From NCBI GenBank assembly GCA_016840035.1, contig JAEOTC010000077.1, positions 1 through 64,000 of the forward strand: a stretch of DNA of 64,000 bases, in the 5' to 3' direction. Within the stretch, counting starts at the first letter, position 1; every line of letters starts with the position of its first letter. This stretch comes from Candidatus Hodarchaeota archaeon (GTDB lineage: Archaea; Asgardarchaeota; Heimdallarchaeia; Hodarchaeales; Hodarchaeaceae). Made by a program: the position numbers and the translations under genes. Shown piece after piece: positions 23,883 through 35,336 of this stretch. The notes beneath the pieces were generated by a model, which was given only the letters and a program-made list of their open reading frames with translations, searched no databases and was not told the origin of the DNA.

Positions 23883-25340
23883 ATGACAATTAAAGTTGCA
23901 GAGAAACGGATGAATTCAGTAGGAGTTGATGTAGGCACCAGCACTTCTCATCTGGTCTTTTCGGAGTTAGTTCTCAAGAAAGACCCTTCATCAAAAACAG
24001 AAAAATTCTACGTCGCTGAACGCAACATAAAACATCGAGGAGACATTATTTTTACTCCTTTACGCCCTACAACCAATGAAATTGATATTGACCGCCTTTT
24101 ACCTGCTCTCCTCCACGAATATCAGAAAGCGAACATTGATCCAGCCACCATAGATTCTGGGGCAGTTATCATCACTGGTGAGTCTGCTAAACGTAATAAT
24201 GCAGAGAAAATTGTTCAATTCCTGGCTAAGGAAGCTCAACTTGGTAATTTTGTCGCTAGTACTGCTGGACCCAACTTCGAATCAATGATCTCTGCATATG
24301 GGTCAGGAGCTGTGACCTATTCCGCAACTCATGGGAAAAAGATCATTCATTCTGATGTGGGAGGCGGAACCTCGAACATTGCTGTCATTGATAATGGTAT
24401 TATTACTGCTACAGCATGTATAAATGTTGGAGGTAGATTATTAGCATTTAATGATGCTAATGAGATTATTCGCTTGGAACCTGCTGGAGTTTGGGTTTTA
24501 GAGGCATGTAACCTGACTCATAAGTTAGGTGAGAAAATAACTGAAGAAGAAAAACTTCTTGTAAGTCAAAAATTAGCTGATTCATTGCTTGAAGTACTTA
24601 AGGGTGAAAAGCTCTCTAAACTTACGCAAAAACTGATGATGACGGAAAATCTTCCTCAAGAATGCTTTGAGAATAGTCCTGCTGTTAGTTTCTCTGGAGG
24701 TGTGGCGGAATTCATTTATCAAAAATCTGATGAGGAATTCCACGATCTTGGAAAGCTACTGGGAAATCACATACGATCTCTCCTCAGTGAAAACAATTTG
24801 GAGCAAATTGAAACTCCAGAGAAAATTAGAGCAACTGTTATTGGTGCTAGCGGACATACACTAAACGTAAGTGGGTCAACAACATTTATTTCGAAGGATC
24901 GAAGTAAAATTGACCTTCCTGTTCGTAATTTACCTGTAGTTCTCCCCCAAATCGACAGACAACTTCTATCAATTGATTATGTTGCCACCCAGATTCGCAA
25001 TGCCTTTCTGAGAATGGATATTGAAGAGGGCGAAGATAACTTTGTCTTGGCTTTTATAGATCCTGTCCGTTCAGTTTATGAAAAATTAACAATTTTTTCA
25101 AAAGGAATTGTGAAAGGATTACCTAAAACAATACAATCTGAAAAACCAATTTTTCTTGTCTTTGAAACAGATATTGGTAACTCTGTAGGGAATGTCATGA
25201 AAAGAGAAACAGGAATCTCAAATGAAATCCTCTCTTTAGATGAAATTTCTATCAAAGAGGGTGATTTTCTGGATTGCGGAAAACCACTGTTTGAGGATCG
25301 TGTATTCCCTATAGTCATAAAATCATTAATCTTCGGTTGA
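23883..25340 (+). CDS. eutA: EutA-like reactivating factor for B12-dependent lyase (ASKHA fold)
   Basis: SVGVDVGTSTSHLVFS, IFTPL, GAVIITGESA..NA, FVASTAGPNFES, DVGGGTSN, NVGGRL, FSGGVAE, IRATVIGA, PIVIKSLIF. Confidence 0.88.
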   Translation: MTIKVAEKRMNSVGVDVGTSTSHLVFSELVLKKDPSSKTEKFYVAERNIKHRGDIIFTPLRPTTNEIDIDRLLPALLHEYQKANIDPATIDSGAVIITGESAKRNNAEKIVQFLAKEAQLGNFVASTAGPNFESMISAYGSGAVTYSATHGKKIIHSDVGGGTSNIAVIDNGIITATACINVGGRLLAFNDANEIIRLEPAGVWVLEACNLTHKLGEKITEEEKLLVSQKLADSLLEVLKGEKLSKLTQKLMMTENLPQECFENSPAVSFSGGVAEFIYQKSDEEFHDLGKLLGNHIRSLLSENNLEQIETPEKIRATVIGASGHTLNVSGSTTFISKDRSKIDLPVRNLPVVLPQIDRQLLSIDYVATQIRNAFLRMDIEEGEDNFVLAFIDPVRSVYEKLTIFSKGIVKGLPKTIQSEKPIFLVFETDIGNSVGNVMKRETGISNEILSLDEISIKEGDFLDCGKPLFEDRVFPIVIKSLIFG

Positions 25341-26807: not shown

Positions 26808-27755
26808 TTAAAAGAACAGAGTGGTTCCAATTAGCGCAATATAAAACCACAAGAATGCAAAAGCCATCAAAATTGAAGCAGTTTTAAAAATTTTAAAGCT
26901 AAGTTTTTGAGAGGGGGTAATTAAGTTCTTTACTGCTAAATAGAGGACAAACGCATTAATCACCAGAAGGGGAGTCAAGAGAATTAATTCAATACTTAGA
27001 ACAAATCCTGTAGATATAATTAATATGCTGCTAATAATAGCTGAAATGGTAATAACTTGTATAGTCTCTGTTTGGCCACGAACAATCGGCCAAACTGGAA
27101 TATTAGCCTCCTGATAGCCACTTAAATTTTCTGGAATGAGTGCAAGAGTTAAGAAGTGTAAAGGGATCCAACAGACCACAAATAGCCCCATCAATATCCC
27201 TGCAACAGTGATAGAATTTGTAACAGCAGTTACGCCAGCTAATGCGGGAAATCCACCTGCTAATCCTCCAAATACAATAGAATAGCGAGTTCTCCGCTTA
27301 AGCCAGAAAGAATATACAACAATGTCAAAAAACGCCCCTAAAAATACAACAAGCATTGTTAGCGCATTTACGAATACACCAACAAAGAATCCTCCAGCAA
27401 TGGTGAAGAGAAGACCATGTTTTAATACTGTATAAGGAGGAATTTTACCTGATGGTAGCGCGCGTTCTTTAGTCCGTTTCATCAATGAATCAATATCACG
27501 ATCAATATACATATTCAGGAGTGTACTCCCTGAAACCGCTAAAAATAATCCAGTTATTAACCATAAAAAGGTCATTACATTAAAATTATTTACCCAAGCG
27601 GTTATCAAATAAGCAAAAATAGTCGTGTACACCAATAAAAAGGTCTGCTTTGTTTTGATTAGCTCACCGTAAAGAGAAAAAGGTGTAGTTTGTGAAGTAG
27701 TTAGAACTGTCTCTTCATAAGAAGTATATTGAGCAGGGGGCTTGTCATTTGCCAT
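26808..27755 (-). CDS. ctaB: Protoheme IX farnesyltransferase (heme O synthase), copy 2
   Basis: UbiA-family NMYIDRDIDSLMKRTKERALPSG, VYSFWLKRRT, GGLAGGFP, W.PLHF. Confidence 0.88.
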   Translation of the reverse strand: MANDKPPAQYTSYEETVLTTSQTTPFSLYGELIKTKQTFLLVYTTIFAYLITAWVNNFNVMTFLWLITGLFLAVSGSTLLNMYIDRDIDSLMKRTKERALPSGKIPPYTVLKHGLLFTIAGGFFVGVFVNALTMLVVFLGAFFDIVVYSFWLKRRTRYSIVFGGLAGGFPALAGVTAVTNSITVAGILMGLFVVCWIPLHFLTLALIPENLSGYQEANIPVWPIVRGQTETIQVITISAIISSILIISTGFVLSIELILLTPLLVINAFVLYLAVKNLITPSQKLSFKIFKTASILMAFAFLWFYIALIGTTLFF

Positions 27756-27898
27756 CGTGGATCTGGAGATACAACAATATTTATTTTATTACTTTGTTTA
27801 CTCCAGTTTTTCGTAGGATTTTCCAAAGTATAAAACTCAAAAAAGAAAAAAAGAAGGAGATTATAGATCAACATTTATTTATATTGATCTAATATTTT

Positions 27899-28858
27899 CT
27901 AAGGGGGAGAGGCAATAACACCGATAAAGAGCCACAAGAAAGCAAACGCCATCAGCATGGATGCTAGTTTGAAGATTCTAAATGTCCGTATTTGTGTGGG
28001 ATTTCGAAGATTGTTAAGTGACATCCATATCATATAGAAACAGAAGGCGAATAATGGGATCAGAGGTAGAAATCGAATCTCTAACACCATTCCAGTTAAA
28101 GCGATTAGTATTGTACTTAAGATAGCAGAGAGAGTGATTACTTTAATTGTCTGGTTTTTACTTCGTATGACTGGCCACATTGGAACCTGTGCATTTCGAT
28201 AACCTTCAAGATTTTTAGGGAGTAAAGCTAATGTTAGGATGTGTAAGGGAATCCAACATAATACAAATAACCCCATTAAAATCCCTGGAATAGTGATTGA
28301 TGCGGAAACAGCTGTGGCTCCTGCTAATGCAGGGAGGCCCCCTGCAATTCCACCAAAGATTATAGAAAATCGTGTTCTCCTCTTCAATAAGTAGGAATAA
28401 ACAACCACATCAAAAAAAGCCCCGAGGAAAACGACCACTGAGGTCAGGAGATCCACAAAAATCGCAATTGCTAATATTCCTGCAATTGTAAAGAGGAAAC
28501 CGTGTTTAAGAACCGTCTTAGGTGAGATTTTTCCCATGGGGAGTGGTCGATCTCTTGTTCTTTCCATAAGAGCATCAATATCCCGGTCAATATACATATT
28601 TAACAGAGTACTTCCCGAAATAGCGAAAAACACTCCCACGTTCAACCACAGAAATACGCTCAAACTAATCCCAGTCCACCAAGCACTGATGAGGTAAGCA
28701 AAGAATGTAGTGTAAAGTAACAAGAATGTTTGCTTACTCTTAATCAACTCTCCATAAAGAAAAAAGGGAGTAGTTGTGGTTGTGGAGACTGTTGCTTGCT
28801 CGTAGTCATGTAAGTATTCAGGAGAGTCCATGTCTGTCATATGTTTCCATTTCACCAC
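27899..28858 (-). CDS. ctaB: Protoheme IX farnesyltransferase (heme O synthase), copy 1
   Basis: NMYIDRDIDALMERTRDRPLPMG, VYSYLLKRRT, GGIAGGLP, W.PLHI, Y..A.VPM; start may be ATG 28840. Confidence 0.88.
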   Translation of the reverse strand: MVKWKHMTDMDSPEYLHDYEQATVSTTTTTPFFLYGELIKSKQTFLLLYTTFFAYLISAWWTGISLSVFLWLNVGVFFAISGSTLLNMYIDRDIDALMERTRDRPLPMGKISPKTVLKHGFLFTIAGILAIAIFVDLLTSVVVFLGAFFDVVVYSYLLKRRTRFSIIFGGIAGGLPALAGATAVSASITIPGILMGLFVLCWIPLHILTLALLPKNLEGYRNAQVPMWPVIRSKNQTIKVITLSAILSTILIALTGMVLEIRFLPLIPLFAFCFYMIWMSLNNLRNPTQIRTFRIFKLASMLMAFAFLWLFIGVIASPP

Positions 28859-28880
28859 TTTTGAGATTGTTTTATGTTAC

Positions 28881-30503
28881 TTATTCTGGCCAATCCTTGA
28901 CATCATGTCGACCTTTTATGATCTGAATCAATTGATTAAAGCAGAGAATTGCTAATGCGATTACAAAAAGCATGATTCCTAAATCCATAACAATTGGTAA
29001 CCAATTTCCAAAACCAAATAGCTCCTGTGCTTTCCAAAAGGCTGCTACATCTTCAAACATGCCAAGAGATAATGGATCAGAAGGAGTAATACTATCTGCC
29101 CAAGCTAGATCAAAGTGTGGAAAATATAGGTAGATAGCACCAAGACCAAATGCCACAACACTTCCTGCAAGGAATAACCAACCCATTACATTTCTGATTG
29201 ATCCCTTTATATCGAGTACATCAATTAGAAGTAACACCAACATGATTGCAGAAAGGGTAGCTAAAATGTGCCAATGACCGCGAGCTACAGTCGTTTCAAC
29301 TGCTAATGGACCCTCTCTAAAGGCAGGTATTTTCAGTATTTCTGTAAAAGGGGATGGATCATCACCACCTCGAAGACTGAGTGCAAGGAAAATTCCACCA
29401 AAAGTCATAACAAAATTGACCCAAATAAAATGGAAATAGAGAGAAAATCTCACAGGATCCTTGAAAATGGCTTTAACCTTGGTAGACGATGAGGAAGAAT
29501 CATAGTCTCCACCAAGGAACTCTTTACTTAATTTTTTCCAACCAGTTAAGGCCAAAATTAAGCCAACTGTTACAAGAATTGCAGATCCTGCATATATCAA
29601 ATAATGCATATCAAATGGGTAACTAATTATTTCGTTAAAAGTAACAGCCCATGACCCAATTGACATGATTAACATACCAGGTATTGCTAAGGCCATAGAT
29701 AATCCATACCATTTTCCTTTTTGATCTTGTACAGTATATCGATATACAACTAATAAAATAATTACATCGATAAGCGCAAGCATGATATGCAAGTGTGCTT
29801 TTACCGCATCCACTAATACATGATCATATTCAAGTGCATATGTTTCAATTACCTCTGGACGGAGAAAATATTCAGCTAATAGTGGTATCATGCCATTTCC
29901 AAAGAAAGACCCGATTACTCCACCAAGAATGACACTAAGTAGAATACAAACCGTAAGAAGGGTTACCGCATATTGGCCAAGAAGAATATTCCGTCTATTT
30001 TCCGCATCACGTTTTGGGAATGAACCCGTTGGAAAAACACCTAGTAATAGCATAATTCCTGCATAGAAACAAAGAGAAAGTCCAACAAGGTAAAAACCGT
30101 GGAAAATCCATCCCTTGGGATCTATATAGGCAAATATTATACCACTTCCTGAAGCAAAAATACTACCAATGAACAATGGCCATTTAACCCGTGTTTTGAA
30201 TTTTTCACGGACATCCATGAACATTAGTACAAAATATGTACATACTGCAACCACTGGTACAGCTATACTGTGGTAAAGGATAATAATTCGTCCTGCTCTA
30301 TCTACAAAATCATCTGATAGCTCAATAGGCAATAGAGGTTTTCCAAAAATGAGTTTTATGGGTTCAGAAAATGTAGAGAGGAATAAAATTATTACAAAGA
30401 GCCACACAAGGGTAAACGTTATCATTCCTTTGTAAGTCGCGCCATAGTTAATTTTTCTTTTCAACCAATCGGTTTTTGAATCAGTAGTATCTACTGTATC
30501 CAT
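28881..30503 (-). CDS. ~12-TM His-containing membrane protein; divergent heme-copper oxidase subunit I-like
   Basis: Three 4-TM pseudo-repeats with His at LYH78, AH237LH239 and GH410WH412; TFGGIFLA...ETTVARGHWHIL resembles Cox1 helices IX-X; co-oriented with two heme O synthases. Confidence 0.55.
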   Translation of the reverse strand: MDTVDTTDSKTDWLKRKINYGATYKGMITFTLVWLFVIILFLSTFSEPIKLIFGKPLLPIELSDDFVDRAGRIIILYHSIAVPVVAVCTYFVLMFMDVREKFKTRVKWPLFIGSIFASGSGIIFAYIDPKGWIFHGFYLVGLSLCFYAGIMLLLGVFPTGSFPKRDAENRRNILLGQYAVTLLTVCILLSVILGGVIGSFFGNGMIPLLAEYFLRPEVIETYALEYDHVLVDAVKAHLHIMLALIDVIILLVVYRYTVQDQKGKWYGLSMALAIPGMLIMSIGSWAVTFNEIISYPFDMHYLIYAGSAILVTVGLILALTGWKKLSKEFLGGDYDSSSSSTKVKAIFKDPVRFSLYFHFIWVNFVMTFGGIFLALSLRGGDDPSPFTEILKIPAFREGPLAVETTVARGHWHILATLSAIMLVLLLIDVLDIKGSIRNVMGWLFLAGSVVAFGLGAIYLYFPHFDLAWADSITPSDPLSLGMFEDVAAFWKAQELFGFGNWLPIVMDLGIMLFVIALAILCFNQLIQIIKGRHDVKDWPE

Positions 30504-30514
30504 TGAAAATCACC

Positions 30515-31201
30515 TTAGAATAGGTTACTAATCACAGGAATGTCAACTTTCCATTTCTTGGGTAATCCAATTCCTAGGACAAACAAAACTCCTACTATTA
30601 AGAGGAGATAGGGAAGTACATCGAAGACCAAGTTCAATAAGTCTTCATTCCCTGATCCAACTGTAGCCATAGCTAATAAAACTCCACCAAATGAAATTAA
30701 TAACCCACCAATTCCAAAGAAAGCACTTGTCCACTCTGTTTCTTTTGTATACACGGTGTATAATGGCAAAAAGGAAATAATTAATCCAGAGGGAATATGA
30801 ATTGCCATAATAACCATGGAGGCTATATCCAGTTCTAATATACCTAGTTTAATTACCGTTAAGAGTGCAATAACGATTAACGCGTATATGGTATAAAATA
30901 ATCCATATTGTGTGTCATCGAACACAGCATACAAAAGTCCGACAGCAAGTCCTGCTGGGATCAATGCAGCTACAGGGGGGACTAATTCGTGACCTATGGC
31001 ATCTGCCCATCCGAGAAGAATAATTATCACTCCCGAGACGAAAAGTACTAAGAAACTAATAGCCCATGCCAAGTGATATGGTTTTTTAGATACCAAATAT
31101 TCCTTTAATAGGAGGAGGGCTAATACGATTGCCACCACACCTACTACTAGAAGCACAATTGCTCCAATCATATCTGTTTCAAGTAATGACATAAATTTCA
31201 A
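30515..31201 (-). CDS. Hypothetical ~7-TM membrane protein
   Basis: Seven hydrophobic segments; YHLAW and IHIPSG; 11 bp upstream of the His-rich membrane gene. Confidence 0.75.
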   Translation of the reverse strand: MKFMSLLETDMIGAIVLLVVGVVAIVLALLLLKEYLVSKKPYHLAWAISFLVLFVSGVIIILLGWADAIGHELVPPVAALIPAGLAVGLLYAVFDDTQYGLFYTIYALIVIALLTVIKLGILELDIASMVIMAIHIPSGLIISFLPLYTVYTKETEWTSAFFGIGGLLISFGGVLLAMATVGSGNEDLLNLVFDVLPYLLLIVGVLFVLGIGLPKKWKVDIPVISNLF

Positions 31202-31367
31202 CTCAATTTCTAATTTAGATCTTTCTTTTACTAATGAAAGTCTGATTTTGTGAAAGATTTAAACTATCAAGCTTTATCCACAAGAATTCGTGTTTATAAT
31301 ATTCCTGCCAATAGAAGAAACAGGTAACAATTCAGAATAAAGTTTTTGCGAATAAAAAAATTAGCAC

Positions 31368-31383
31368 CTTACTAAATAGTAAG
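31368..31383. promoter_or_regulatory. Perfect inverted repeat, candidate operator of the adjacent HxlR-family regulator
   Basis: CTTACTA-AA-TAGTAAG in the middle of the divergent 31202-31529 intergenic region. Confidence 0.55.
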
Positions 31384-31529
31384 TAAATCTAACATTTCTT
31401 TTGTCCGAAAACCTTGATAACAAAAAACAAGCAGATTATATTAGAGTAAGCAACTAACTTATCTTGATATCCTTATTATATTCCATTTTAATTGTGTAAA
31501 TAGCAACGATTTCTGCTGGATGTGCTAGT

Positions 31530-31970
31530 TTGAACGAAGAAAAAATGGAAGAATGTGCCGCAAGCCTAGCAATGAAAATCTTAGGCCGTAAATGGACACT
31601 GTATATTATTTGTGAGCTTCTGATGTGCCAAGAATTATATTTTAGTCAATTACAAGAACAAATTCAAGGCCATTATAATGAAAAGATCTCTGCACGAGTC
31701 CTATCAGAAAGTCTGAGTCGTTTAGAAGAAAATGGAGTCGTTAATAGAACTGTCCATAGTGAAAGCATGCCGATTCGAGTGGGGTATTCCTTAACTGCAA
31801 AAGGTGATGATTTTGCAGTTATTTTTAGTGCATTGAAGGGTTGGGGAATCAAATGGGGCGGAGTGACAGTCAAAAAATGTAAATCTTTTGCTTGTATTCA
31901 TAATGCTGTTCCCGTTATTGATATTGATGCTGCTAAAGAGCTTTTCCAAATCGGGGAATGCAACGACTAA
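31530..31970 (+). CDS. HxlR/DUF24 (MarR-type) transcriptional regulator, Cys-rich
   Basis: ECAASLAMKILGRKWTLYII, FSQL, ISARVLSESLSRLEENGVV.R, P.RV.YSLT.KG, WG; C-terminal CKSFAC. Confidence 0.9.
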   Translation: MNEEKMEECAASLAMKILGRKWTLYIICELLMCQELYFSQLQEQIQGHYNEKISARVLSESLSRLEENGVVNRTVHSESMPIRVGYSLTAKGDDFAVIFSALKGWGIKWGGVTVKKCKSFACIHNAVPVIDIDAAKELFQIGECND

Positions 31971-32533: not shown

Positions 32534-33001
32534 TTATTCTTTTCGAATCTTTTGTTGGGCAAGCATCGCTGATTGAACTATGGGTTTATACCCCGTGCAC
32601 CTACAAAGGTGTTTTTCGAGAGCTTTATTGATATCTTCTTTTCCTACTTCAGGGTTCGCATTAAAAAGCGCATACAACTCCATAATATATCCAGGAGTGC
32701 AGAATCCACATTGAACCCCTGTGGCTTCAATAAATGCTTCCTGAATTGCATGAAGAGAGAAGTCACTTGATATACCCTCAATAGTAACAATATTAGCATT
32801 TTCCAGTTTTCTAGCTTTAGTAATGCAACTTTTCACAGCTTTACCATTAACAACGACGGTACAGGCTCCACAATGACCCTGTTTGCATCCATTTTTTGTA
32901 CCTGTTAGATTTAGCTTCTCACGAAGAATGTCAAGTAACGAATCAGAAGGCTCTACTTCAAATGTATACGCTTTTTTATTAACGATTATATTTAGTTCCA
33001 T
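32534..33001 (-). CDS. Molybdenum hydroxylase small subunit (2x[2Fe-2S]; CoxS/XdhC-like)
   Basis: GTKNGCKQGHCGACTV, QCGFCTPG, HLCRCTGY; ATG 33001 abuts the large-subunit stop (track start 33016). Confidence 0.92.
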   Translation of the reverse strand: MELNIIVNKKAYTFEVEPSDSLLDILREKLNLTGTKNGCKQGHCGACTVVVNGKAVKSCITKARKLENANIVTIEGISSDFSLHAIQEAFIEATGVQCGFCTPGYIMELYALFNANPEVGKEDINKALEKHLCRCTGYKPIVQSAMLAQQKIRKE

Positions 33002-33002
33002 T

Positions 33003-35336
33003 TCATTCTCCTCCATTCCTTAATAATTCAAGCATCCGTTCTGTAGTTACCGGTATGCTTGTTAATGAAATTCCTGTTGCTCTTTGAATTGCATTTAAGA
33101 TGACAGAAGGGGGACCTATAGCTGGATGTTCAGCAATTGGTCGTGCACCAAAGGGGCCATCGGGTTGAGGTGTTTCGATAAAGATACAACTATATTTTTC
33201 AGGCATATCAGAAAGTCTGGGGATGGCATATTTACGTAAATTCGTTGTAATCATGTTACCTGACTCATCATATTCGATTTTCTCTTTTAATGCCTGACCA
33301 ATACCTTGCATTACCCCTCCAGTAATTTGTCCCTCTGCTAAAGCGGGATTAATGATTTTTCCAGCATCTAAAGCCGTAACAAAGTGTAAAATACTGATTT
33401 TTCCAGTTGTTTTATTGATTTTAAGGTCTACTCCTTGACTCCCATATGTCCACTCGTAAGGCTGATACTGACCCGTCTCTAAATCTGGGAAAGTAACATT
33501 ACGAACAACTGATGAACCAGTACTCAGAATCGGATTTCCCAAGGTATGTCCATCTGGGTACTGATAACCTAAAACTAGTTCTTTAAGACTAAGTGTTTTA
33601 TCCTGATAACTTACTCTCGTCCCATTATAAACAATATCATTTAAGGAACAATTCCACACTTCAGCAGCATTTGTTTTAAACTTTTTAATGGCTTCTTCAC
33701 ATGCTATAATGATTGCATTTCCAACTCGCATGGTTGTCATACTTGCAACCGTCTGCCATTCATATGGGGTCAGTTGTGTGTTGATCTCATAATTTATCCG
33801 TATTCGTTCTACTGGAATATGTAGAGTTTGAGATGCAATTTGAGCAAGAACGGTTAAACAACCTTGACCCATTTCTACACCACCAATCGAGATATTAACC
33901 GTTAAATCCTCATTAAATTTTAAAAATACAGTTGAGGATGCATTTGCTGTTTGAACAGGTGATTTTATTAGTCCAACTACTGCACGACCGTAAAAATACT
34001 CTTCATCCTCCGGAGGTAGAGAAGTTTCATTCAATTTTGCCACTGTTTGAGTGAAGCACTTTCTAATATCCCCATTATGTCTAGTAACGATTTGACCTAG
34101 TGAATTCGTGTCACCATGTTGTAAAAAGTTCTTCATTCTCAGTTGATTAGGATTCATATCCAATTTTAGAGCGATTTTATCGATTAAACGTTCAACCATG
34201 AATTGTCCTTCGGGATGGCCATATCCACGAAATGCTCCGACAGGGGTTGAGTTAGTATACACTCCAAAAGACTTGAGATTGCAATTGGGGAAATAATAGG
34301 GGCCAACACAGTTATGACCTCCCGCTAATACAACATTACAACCTGTATCTCCATAAGCACCATCAGAATAATATTGTGTGGCTTCTATTCCAACGAGGGT
34401 ACCGTCACTTTTCGCTCCTAACTTCATGAATCCCTTCATTCCACGTCCCAATACTGATCCAATAAATACTTCTTTTCGAGTTAGAACAAATTTGACGTGA
34501 TAACCTGGGACTAATTTTGCAGCGAGTGTAACAAGTGGTTCAATAGTATAATCACTCTTTCCACCAAAACCCCCTCCAAGATACGGGATATGAATGTGAA
34601 GTTTCGTCATTTGTTTAATATCGAAGTAGTCTGAGAGAACCTCCCTTAACACAAAGGGGGCCTGTGAGCTACTCCATACATGGATGTCTCCTGTATGATC
34701 CCAGCGTGCAATAGCACCATGAGGTTCGATAGCTGCGTGATTCATAAGTGGATACTCGAATTCATCTTCAACTATAATCTCGGCATCCTTAAAAACTTCT
34801 TCATGGTCACCTTTTTTCAATTGGTACATGTAAAAGACGTTTGATTTTGGAATAGGAACAAAAGTAGGTACGTGACGATAGTTTCCATTCTGTTCATGAA
34901 TAAGGGGAGCGTTTGGATCTGCTGCTTCAATGGCATCCAATACAAAAGGTAATTCTTCTAAGTTCACATCAATTTCCTTAATCGCAACTAGTGCTTGGCT
35001 TTCAGTTTCTGCAATAACAACAGCTATAACCTCTCCCGCATGTCTTACTTTATCAATAGCAATTGGGGGTTGATCAAAAATACAAGTGCCGAATAAATGG
35101 TTTTTATCCAAACCTAAAGACTTGCCTGTAAATACTTTATGAACTCCAGGCATTTTTTCCGCGTTGTCTATATTTATTGAGTTAATGATCGCATGAGGCA
35201 CCTTTGCTCTTAATACCTTCATTATTAATGTTCGTGGAAATCGTAAATCATCAATAAATAAAGCTGTGCCCGTAACTTTTTCCTTTGCATCCGCTCTTGG
35301 AATATTGGTCCCTACTACTTTGCCATACAACTTCAA
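33003..35336 (-). CDS. Molybdenum hydroxylase large subunit (xanthine dehydrogenase/aldehyde oxidoreductase family)
   Basis: KVTG.A.F.DD, IEPHG, GGGFGGK, AFRGYG, EMGQG, INP...GQITGG..QG.G, GPFGA...E. Confidence 0.92.
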   Translation of the reverse strand: MKLYGKVVGTNIPRADAKEKVTGTALFIDDLRFPRTLIMKVLRAKVPHAIINSINIDNAEKMPGVHKVFTGKSLGLDKNHLFGTCIFDQPPIAIDKVRHAGEVIAVVIAETESQALVAIKEIDVNLEELPFVLDAIEAADPNAPLIHEQNGNYRHVPTFVPIPKSNVFYMYQLKKGDHEEVFKDAEIIVEDEFEYPLMNHAAIEPHGAIARWDHTGDIHVWSSSQAPFVLREVLSDYFDIKQMTKLHIHIPYLGGGFGGKSDYTIEPLVTLAAKLVPGYHVKFVLTRKEVFIGSVLGRGMKGFMKLGAKSDGTLVGIEATQYYSDGAYGDTGCNVVLAGGHNCVGPYYFPNCNLKSFGVYTNSTPVGAFRGYGHPEGQFMVERLIDKIALKLDMNPNQLRMKNFLQHGDTNSLGQIVTRHNGDIRKCFTQTVAKLNETSLPPEDEEYFYGRAVVGLIKSPVQTANASSTVFLKFNEDLTVNISIGGVEMGQGCLTVLAQIASQTLHIPVERIRINYEINTQLTPYEWQTVASMTTMRVGNAIIIACEEAIKKFKTNAAEVWNCSLNDIVYNGTRVSYQDKTLSLKELVLGYQYPDGHTLGNPILSTGSSVVRNVTFPDLETGQYQPYEWTYGSQGVDLKINKTTGKISILHFVTALDAGKIINPALAEGQITGGVMQGIGQALKEKIEYDESGNMITTNLRKYAIPRLSDMPEKYSCIFIETPQPDGPFGARPIAEHPAIGPPSVILNAIQRATGISLTSIPVTTERMLELLRNGGE

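Follow-up and report, generated by a model that had tools for sequence, protein, structure and literature searches.

The protein HCOL, encoded in the genome of a Candidatus Hodarchaeota archaeon, is classed here as a new family-level branch of the heme-copper oxidase (HCO) superfamily with its own cofactor synthase. HCOL is the name given here to a 540-aa membrane protein and its family. The gene (28881-30503, minus strand) lies on a stretch of 64,000 nucleotides (GCA_016840035.1, contig JAEOTC010000077.1, positions 1 to 64,000, forward strand), referred to below as the window, which belongs to an assembly (G000) that is 87% complete and consists of 293 contigs. It is part of a minus-strand run of four genes in the list of open reading frames (ORFs), located at 26808-31201 and composed of a seven-transmembrane (7-TM) protein gene, HCOL, and two ctaB-like genes, P0002 (27899-28858) and P0001 (26808-27755). 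The gaps calculated from the coordinates were 11, 22, and 143 bp, in exact agreement with the co-oriented layout, facing a divergent HxlR gene, that had been reported in an original prediction for this locus. Because HCOL combines a predicted oxidase fold, retained heme-binding His residues, a rewired second-metal site, and a synthase lineage of its own, it is probably an undescribed heme-O-dependent membrane redox enzyme.

Fold and conserved residues of HCOL

HCOL had no Pfam or NCBIfam match, and its homologues, more than 500 in number, were all unnamed and without Pfam domains. The AlphaFold2 model, built with 39 homologues in the alignment, contained twelve long transmembrane helices in three four-helix units (predicted local distance difference test score, pLDDT, 90.4; predicted template modeling score, pTM, 0.91). 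A Foldseek search of the PDB with this model returned almost exclusively subunit I of oxidases and NO reductases (TM-score about 0.5, E values from 8e-3), and the structure search of the ESM Atlas returned COX1 clusters at TM-scores of 0.60-0.62. When the HCOL family was compared by hhalign with 24 COX1 sequences from Asgard genomes and one Anaerolineaceae genome, the probability was 93% over 443 columns (E 4.4e-8); with a broader HCOL family alignment, the corresponding values were 88% and 2.7e-6. All of these comparisons pointed to HCO subunit I, the fold that had been predicted, and HCOL is a distinct and very divergent HCO branch, not a misannotated oxidase. One Atlas cluster of HCOL relatives is named [quoted passage not shown]; as this name is only an automatic one, the resemblance to oxidases has been caught automatically and left unstudied. 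A link to heme O in Thermoplasma, considered on the basis of the Atlas cluster name TVG1190485 and an earlier report (Lubben & Morand 1994), was not confirmed, and no paper naming the locus was found.

In a distribution scan that used one genome per species, HCOL relatives were found in at least 593 species genomes. The hosts belong to Hodarchaeota, Heimdallarchaeota, Thor- and Hermodarchaeota, Chloroflexota (mainly Anaerolineae), Aminicenantes, and Bacillota, including Symbiobacteriaceae. Weak matches in one Asgard family revealed a second clade, represented by the 462-aa protein P0125, which carries the same invariant motifs and has relatives in Archaeoglobus sulfaticallidus PM70-1 (Asulf_01925), Pyrodictium delaneyi, Korarchaeota, Ca. 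Methanodesulfokora, and Njordarchaeia. Since A. sulfaticallidus and P. delaneyi are cultured anaerobes, experiments on HCOL are feasible. In one Asgard genome consisting of a single contig, only a 62-residue HCOL-matching fragment (G079:C1:790950-791138) was detected and ctaB was not found; this fragment may be the remnant of a lost operon.

Across the two deeply split clades, 22 positions were invariant down to 20% identity. They include seven His residues (H78, H135, H237, H239, H300, H410, and H412) as well as R72, Y77, Y126, R396, E403, and W411. As judged by hhalign against COX1, H78 corresponds to the heme ligand of helix II and H410-W-H412 to the HxH motif of helix X, so that the low-spin heme ligands (H78 and H412) and the proximal His of the high-spin heme (H410) were both aligned and invariant. 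The segment W285-A-V287-T288 aligned with the W-x-H-H motif of helix VII, and the His-His pair is replaced there by Val-Thr. These alignments show that HCOL lacks the canonical CuB/FeB ligand set, which consists of one helix VI His and the helix VII pair; a His is present on helix VI. With two canonical His residues missing, the three His and one Glu that form the FeB site of cNOR and qNOR were not present either, and the HCOL residue E211 was conserved in clade 1 only. The cross-linked Tyr of the A, B, and C families of oxygen reductases was not found in the helix VI motif of HCOL (K-A-H-L-H-I-M-L), and helix VII carried no invariant Tyr across both clades.

Four invariant His residues remain in addition to the heme ligands. 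H237-L-H239 belongs to helix VI and lies roughly as deep as the canonical CuB His. H135 and H300 are found where helices IV and VIII begin at the outer face, which are equivalent positions in the pseudo-threefold repeat according to the AlphaFold2 helix boundaries. In the broader hhalign run, H237 fell on the column of the helix VI CuB His and H239 on that of the cross-linked Tyr, and a 13-residue insertion was needed to bring H300 onto the first member of the helix VII His pair. The conservation of H135, H237, H239, and H300 suggests a rebuilt site rather than simple loss. These residues may form either a rebuilt metal site with two or three His ligands or distal or extra heme ligands. The residue mapping of the original prediction, for both the heme ligands and the W-x-H-H motif, agreed with the hhalign result. 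Its statement that the CuB site is lacking holds for the helix VII His-His pair and needs qualification for the site as a whole, since the invariant H237, H239, and H300 may rebuild a metal site.

Linkage to ctaB and a separate synthase lineage

Eighty loci were fetched for a neighborhood survey, and linkage fractions were calculated from those with enough flanking sequence. A ctaB gene on the same strand and at most 1.3 kb downstream of HCOL was detected at 12 of 13 archaeal loci, where ctaB directly adjoins HCOL. At bacterial loci the fraction was 41 of 51, or 43 of 51 when two loci with overlapping ORF calls are included. The linkage spans Asgard archaea, Chloroflexota, Aminicenantes, and Bacillota; HCOL homologues are thus linked to ctaB at most loci in two domains of life, even in genomes without PF00115, the Pfam family of canonical oxidases.

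Both putative synthases encoded in the window, P0001 (315 aa) and P0002 (319 aa, PF01040), belong to the UbiA family and resemble CtaB/CyoE/COX10. The heme o synthase model TIGR01473 was the best NCBIfam model for each, and the CtaB residues N-x3-D-x-D-x-D, R94, R98, K153-R154, W196-x-P-x-H200, and Y214, which oxidase-linked CtaBs have in common with them, were kept. At 219.5 bits, P0001 scored above the model's cut-off of 210.3 bits, and P0002 scored just below it (209.7 bits); both are candidate heme O synthases by best model, and P0001 also by cut-off. The two proteins differ from CtaB/CyoE/COX10 in these scores at the cut-off and in their phylogenetic position. In a maximum-likelihood tree, 61 HCOL-linked ctaBs and six unlinked Asgard ctaBs formed one clade (99% support in the Shimodaira-Hasegawa approximate likelihood ratio test, SH-aLRT), whereas the ctaBs located beside canonical COX1 in Asgard genomes grouped separately (98%). 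Four columns discriminated between the clades, with clade-specific substitutions from Y to D144, N to S159, N to S294, and L to M297 (P0001 numbering).

P0002 is the conserved partner gene of HCOL and the orthologue of the single ctaB of close relatives. In three of these (L015, L016, and L019), one ctaB lies between HCOL and an aldo-keto reductase gene, and the ctaB of L019 is 84% identical to P0002. P0001 shares 60% identity with P0002 (BLASTP) and occupies a longer branch that is sister to the orthologue group; it is a diverged tandem duplicate, seen only in this genome among those sampled. A third ctaB-like gene of the host, encoding 323 aa and belonging to the HCOL-type clade, was found on contig C10 (L143:4801-7323). 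Ahead of it lie genes for a PadR regulator and for a polytopic protein of 290 aa that belongs to no known family, and the contig stops after a further 1 kb. None of the neighbors was related to HCOL or to the 7-TM family.

The host genome also contains a canonical A-type oxidase operon on contig C69 (L002:6829-12508), which encodes a DOMON protein, a 481-aa protein ending in a COX3 domain, COX2, COX1, COX4, and SCO1. This complete operon has no ctaB beside it, and the 87%-complete assembly yielded no oxidase-type ctaB. These results could be explained by an incidental linkage, with the ctaBs of the window serving the C69 oxidase and the 540-aa product representing an unrelated polytopic protein. 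However, such an explanation is highly improbable: HCOL and ctaB stay linked in two domains of life, the HCOL-linked clade contains all three ctaB paralogues of the host genome, and a genome of the same genus (G107) has a separate oxidase-type ctaB. The fold and the conservation of the ligands also oppose an unrelated protein, and a sampling artifact caused by close relatives is excluded by the tree and the taxonomic spread.

Co-occurrence was determined in an even sample of 201 Asgard genomes, to all of which the incompleteness of metagenome-assembled genomes (MAGs) applies. PF00115 was found in 13 genomes and ctaB (E <= 1e-30) in 41, and HCOL was matched in 36, of which 28 gave a strong match. 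ctaB was present in all 28 genomes with a strong HCOL match, mostly adjacent to it, and about 20 of the 28 were without PF00115. Similarly, PF00115 was not found in four of five closed or near-closed genomes containing HCOL and ctaB, namely an Anaerolineaceae chromosome, the complete genome of Ca. Heimdallarchaeum aukensis, and two Heimdallarchaeota chromosomes. Two or more ctaB copies were present in four of the five bacterial genomes checked. In G211, G213, and G215, the best-scoring copy (292-334 bits) was located within about 4 kb of canonical COX1, and a lower-scoring copy (207-218 bits, the range of HCOL-linked ctaBs) was located elsewhere. The separate clade, the separate copies on the oxidase side, and the hosts without PF00115 indicate that ctaB serves HCOL, a non-canonical heme protein, as had been proposed, and the HCOL-linked ctaB would then be a synthase lineage dedicated to HCOL. 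The three refuting conditions named in the original prediction (no structural similarity to the HCO fold, His residues that vary among homologues, and no link to ctaB elsewhere) were each checked, and none of them applied.

Alternatively, HCOL might be a helper in heme O or heme A metabolism (a scaffold, a chaperone, or a modifying enzyme) that takes over heme O from CtaB and then passes it along or converts it, in the manner of the eNOR scaffold protein discussed below. The near-obligate coupling to ctaB is consistent with this idea, as is the presence of canonical HCO/NOR (nitric oxide reductase) genes in most bacterial hosts (10 of 12 tested); because these bacteria and the present genome carry such genes, a helper role for canonical enzymes could apply in some hosts. 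In contrast, no client is visible in about 20 of the sampled Asgard genomes and in 5 of 15 individually checked genomes, which have HCOL and ctaB without PF00115, and G211, G213, and G215 keep a separate, higher-scoring ctaB near their canonical COX1. In addition, CtaA (PF02628) was not found in the 87%-complete host assembly, and both sets of heme ligands and the four further His residues are fully conserved, as would be expected of a cofactor-bearing enzyme. We therefore regard a helper function as quite unlikely.

Companion proteins, regulator, and neighboring genes

The 7-TM protein P0004 (30515-31201, minus strand, 228 aa) is encoded 11 bp upstream of HCOL and had no Pfam or NCBIfam match. 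Its model contained seven helices (pLDDT 91.3) and resembled only generic 7-TM bundles; one His was near-invariant (H135 of P0004), and I81-P82 was invariant. Homologues flanked HCOL at 31 of the 80 loci (about 40%), and they were also located directly upstream of clade-2 HCOL in a Njord-like Asgard genome and in A. sulfaticallidus (E 1e-33 and 1e-31). The 7-TM protein is thus a recurrent but non-universal companion of HCOL, and the gene association extends to the second clade while applying to only about 40% of the loci. Complex prediction for HCOL and the 7-TM protein (score 0.00, mark 0.32) was evidence neither of binding nor of its absence. Downstream of ctaB, several bacterial operons encode as many as two 7-TM paralogues, and locus L067 also encodes a 160-aa membrane protein there.

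A gene with an FGE-sulfatase domain (PF03781) intervenes between HCOL and ctaB at 30 of 59 bacterial loci, and the FGE-like protein carries a lipoprotein signal. Natural fusions of HCOL to an FGE-sulfatase domain (P0199, 785 aa) and to a PD40/beta-propeller (P0275, 777 aa) were also found, indicating that bacteria attach a globular partner at the outer face. A multiheme cytochrome c gene was present near HCOL at 5 of the 59 bacterial loci; in L067 (5839-6951), it lies just upstream of the 7-TM/HCOL operon.

Such outer-face partners would be compatible with HCOL being a transmembrane electron conduit. All its hemes would then be six-coordinate, the helix X heme having H239 or H237 as its distal ligand, possibly with a third heme between H135 of helix IV and helix VI, and electrons would pass to an outer-face partner (the FGE-like domain, the beta-propeller, or multiheme cytochromes). 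Besides the fusions to exported domains and the cytochrome c genes beside some bacterial operons, this explanation could account for the absence of the CuB pair and the catalytic Tyr. It also fits the pseudo-threefold repeat, in that the HxH of helix VI mirrors that of helix X and H135 and H300 occupy equivalent helix starts. However, the Asgard operons encode no outer-face partner. In known HCOs, prenylated hemes fill one heme site of the catalytic subunit or both, and a plain conduit has no obvious need for a prenylated heme. Although a conduit deserves consideration, we think it unlikely.

The regulator gene (31530-31970, plus strand) is divergent from the operon. Its product matched PF01638 with 63.5 bits (E 1.7e-17; cut-off 20.8), which places it in the HxlR family, and it contains a Cys at the N-terminus and the C-terminal motif CKSFAC. 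The match to the redox regulator RrpB was weak (64.8 bits, below the cut-off). HxlR regulators have a reputation for sensing oxidants and electrophiles. An HxlR homologue was found near HCOL at 12 loci, all of them Asgard, so the predicted redox regulator is supported as a divergently transcribed, Cys-rich member of the HxlR family but is linked to HCOL only in Asgard relatives.

The divergent intergenic region contains a perfect 7-2-7 palindrome (CTTACTA-AA-TAGTAAG, 31368-31383), a candidate operator that was unique in the window, with 0 expected in shuffles. The same half-sites (AGTAAG / CTTACT-like) recur at 31445-31460 as an imperfect inverted repeat. In five related intergenic regions, the half ACTTACT of the palindrome was invariant and the other half varied; the exact palindrome was not conserved at other loci, where only half-sites were found. 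The block AGTAAG-N2-4-(G)CTTAC, which corresponds to the second repeat, was kept in all five aligned relatives. Scans for sigma-70 promoters and terminators gave no more hits than chance, using models that do not apply to archaeal promoters.

Consistent with the original prediction, no subunit II, ctaA, or cytochrome c gene was found within 23.9-35.3 kb around the operon. The neighbors in this region encode EutA, a metallophosphoesterase, an aldo-keto reductase, a glyoxalase, and 2Fe-2S and molybdopterin subunits. The EutA-like reactivase is encoded at 23883-25340 (plus strand), and the 2Fe-2S and molybdopterin-binding subunits of a xanthine dehydrogenase-family enzyme are encoded at 32534-35336 (minus strand). 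Synteny of the 2Fe-2S gene was limited to close relatives, and the aldo-keto reductase gene (downstream) and the glyoxalase gene (upstream) were common only to very close relatives.

Relation to known enzymes and proposed function

Few enzyme scaffolds have been studied as thoroughly as the HCO superfamily, whose three active-site His residues have been regarded as nearly immutable. HCOL shares the helix II His and the helix X HxH with CcoN (8smr_E, 3mk7_A), NorB (4xyd_A, 3o0r_B), and CoxA (3dtu_C, 2gsm_C). It also has, like HCO subunit I, a Trp at the end of helix VII and an acidic residue (E403) seven positions before the first helix X His; E403 presumably occupies the place of the Mg-site Asp in A-type oxidases. 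Unlike HCO subunit I, HCOL has no PF00115 match, carries Val-Thr on helix VII and no Tyr on helix VI, and possesses the new invariant residues H135, H239, and H300. Moreover, its ctaB belongs to a separate lineage, and its operon contains no cupredoxin or cytochrome c subunit.

Altered active sites without the catalytic Tyr have been described in new NOR families; in one of them, gNOR, a single active-site His is replaced, which is described as the first such case among HCOs (Murali et al., PNAS 2024, PMC11214002). According to that paper, eNOR, sNOR, nNOR, and gNOR, which are B-family relatives, encode homologues of the CuA-containing second subunit, that of gNOR lacking the CuA ligands (PMC11214002). 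HCOL resembles gNOR and the other new NORs, as described there, in its altered active site and the absence of the catalytic Tyr. In contrast to these NORs, which keep at least two of the three canonical His residues, HCOL replaces both helix VII His residues, has no second subunit, and is far more divergent; it does not appear among the families of that study. A CuB-less HCO paralogue termed the "eNOR scaffold protein", whose function is given as unknown, is encoded beside heme o synthase in eNOR operons (bioRxiv 10.64898/2026.01.22.701106). On the basis of this description, HCOL is similar in being an HCO-related gene that shares an operon with heme o synthase. The two differ in that the functional eNOR is a visible client of the scaffold protein, whereas HCOL operons contain no canonical oxidase and the genomes often lack one. 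No description of the HCOL family was found in the literature searched, as far as the available text of these sources extends.

Based on sequence comparison and structural models, we propose that HCOL is a heme-O-type membrane redox enzyme of a divergent HCO family with a dedicated CtaB. This proposal has a good probability of being correct, its most speculative part being the substrate. HCOL would be loaded by its CtaB with a prenylated heme (heme O or a variant). In the host genus, the substrate of CtaB is probably scavenged heme b. Searches of the 87%-complete host genome detected neither HemB (PF00490) nor HemC (PF01379) nor ferrochelatase (PF00762), and HemB was absent from 20 of 21 genomes of the genus, some of them 96-99% complete; its single occurrence was at the contig edge of a 74%-complete MAG. 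Heme O synthases and HCOL are nevertheless retained in the genus, and some members have a canonical oxidase as well. Because the core tetrapyrrole genes were not found while heme O synthases and HCOL are kept, the genus may scavenge heme and only prenylate it. In HCOL itself, H237 and H239 of helix VI and H300 at the start of helix VIII would form the distal pocket, with or without a non-heme metal. The most speculative step is the reduction, by quinol or an outer-face donor, of a small oxidant that anaerobes encounter (O2, NO, or peroxide). The Asgard unit often comprises the 7-TM protein, HCOL, and CtaB under a divergent HxlR-type regulator, and the bacterial unit includes an exported FGE-sulfatase-like lipoprotein, encoded between HCOL and ctaB and sometimes fused to HCOL.

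Several results weigh against this proposal. PF00115 did not match HCOL even at E <= 1, and searches of PDB chains with the HCOL sequence returned no oxidase (0 matches, then one weak match to a single helix pair of an Mrp antiporter). As PF00115 and HMMER fail to bridge the two families, the homology of HCOL to HCOs rests on profile-profile and structural comparison. The family hidden Markov model found only 260 cluster representatives (50% identity) among 1.84 billion proteins. The two hhalign runs disagree in the helix VI region, where the run other than the broader one was gapped. Clade-2 HCOL, for example that of A. sulfaticallidus, has no adjacent ctaB, and no electron-entry subunit (cupredoxin or cytochrome c) was found in the Asgard HCOL operons. 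Lastly, the canonical A-type operon on C69 and the HCO/NOR genes of most bacterial hosts tested count in the same direction.

A stronger version of the proposed redox enzyme is that HCOL constitutes a new catalytic class, in which a heme-O enzyme with a second-metal site rebuilt from H237, H239, and H300, or with an extra heme, consumes trace O2, NO, or peroxide in anaerobes, among them the Asgard lineages nearest to eukaryotes. We advance this version tentatively, with somewhat more doubt than belief. The reduction of trace O2, NO, or peroxide, although speculative, would fit the oxidant-sensing reputation of HxlR regulators and the mostly anaerobic hosts.

A family that occurs in hundreds of species, replaces two active-site His residues, keeps both hemes, and has a heme O synthase to itself would broaden the chemistry of the HCO scaffold. 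Heme O synthase (COX10) has been used, along with Cox, as evidence on oxygen tolerance or respiration in Heimdallarchaeia (bioRxiv 10.1101/2025.02.26.640444). In the sample of 201 genomes from Asgard archaea, ctaB goes with HCOL (28 genomes) more frequently than with the canonical oxidase (13 genomes). If HCOL does form a new catalytic class, heme O synthase in Asgard genomes would mostly report HCOL and not aerobic respiration. This would change what is inferred about oxygen use by the archaeal ancestor of eukaryotes.

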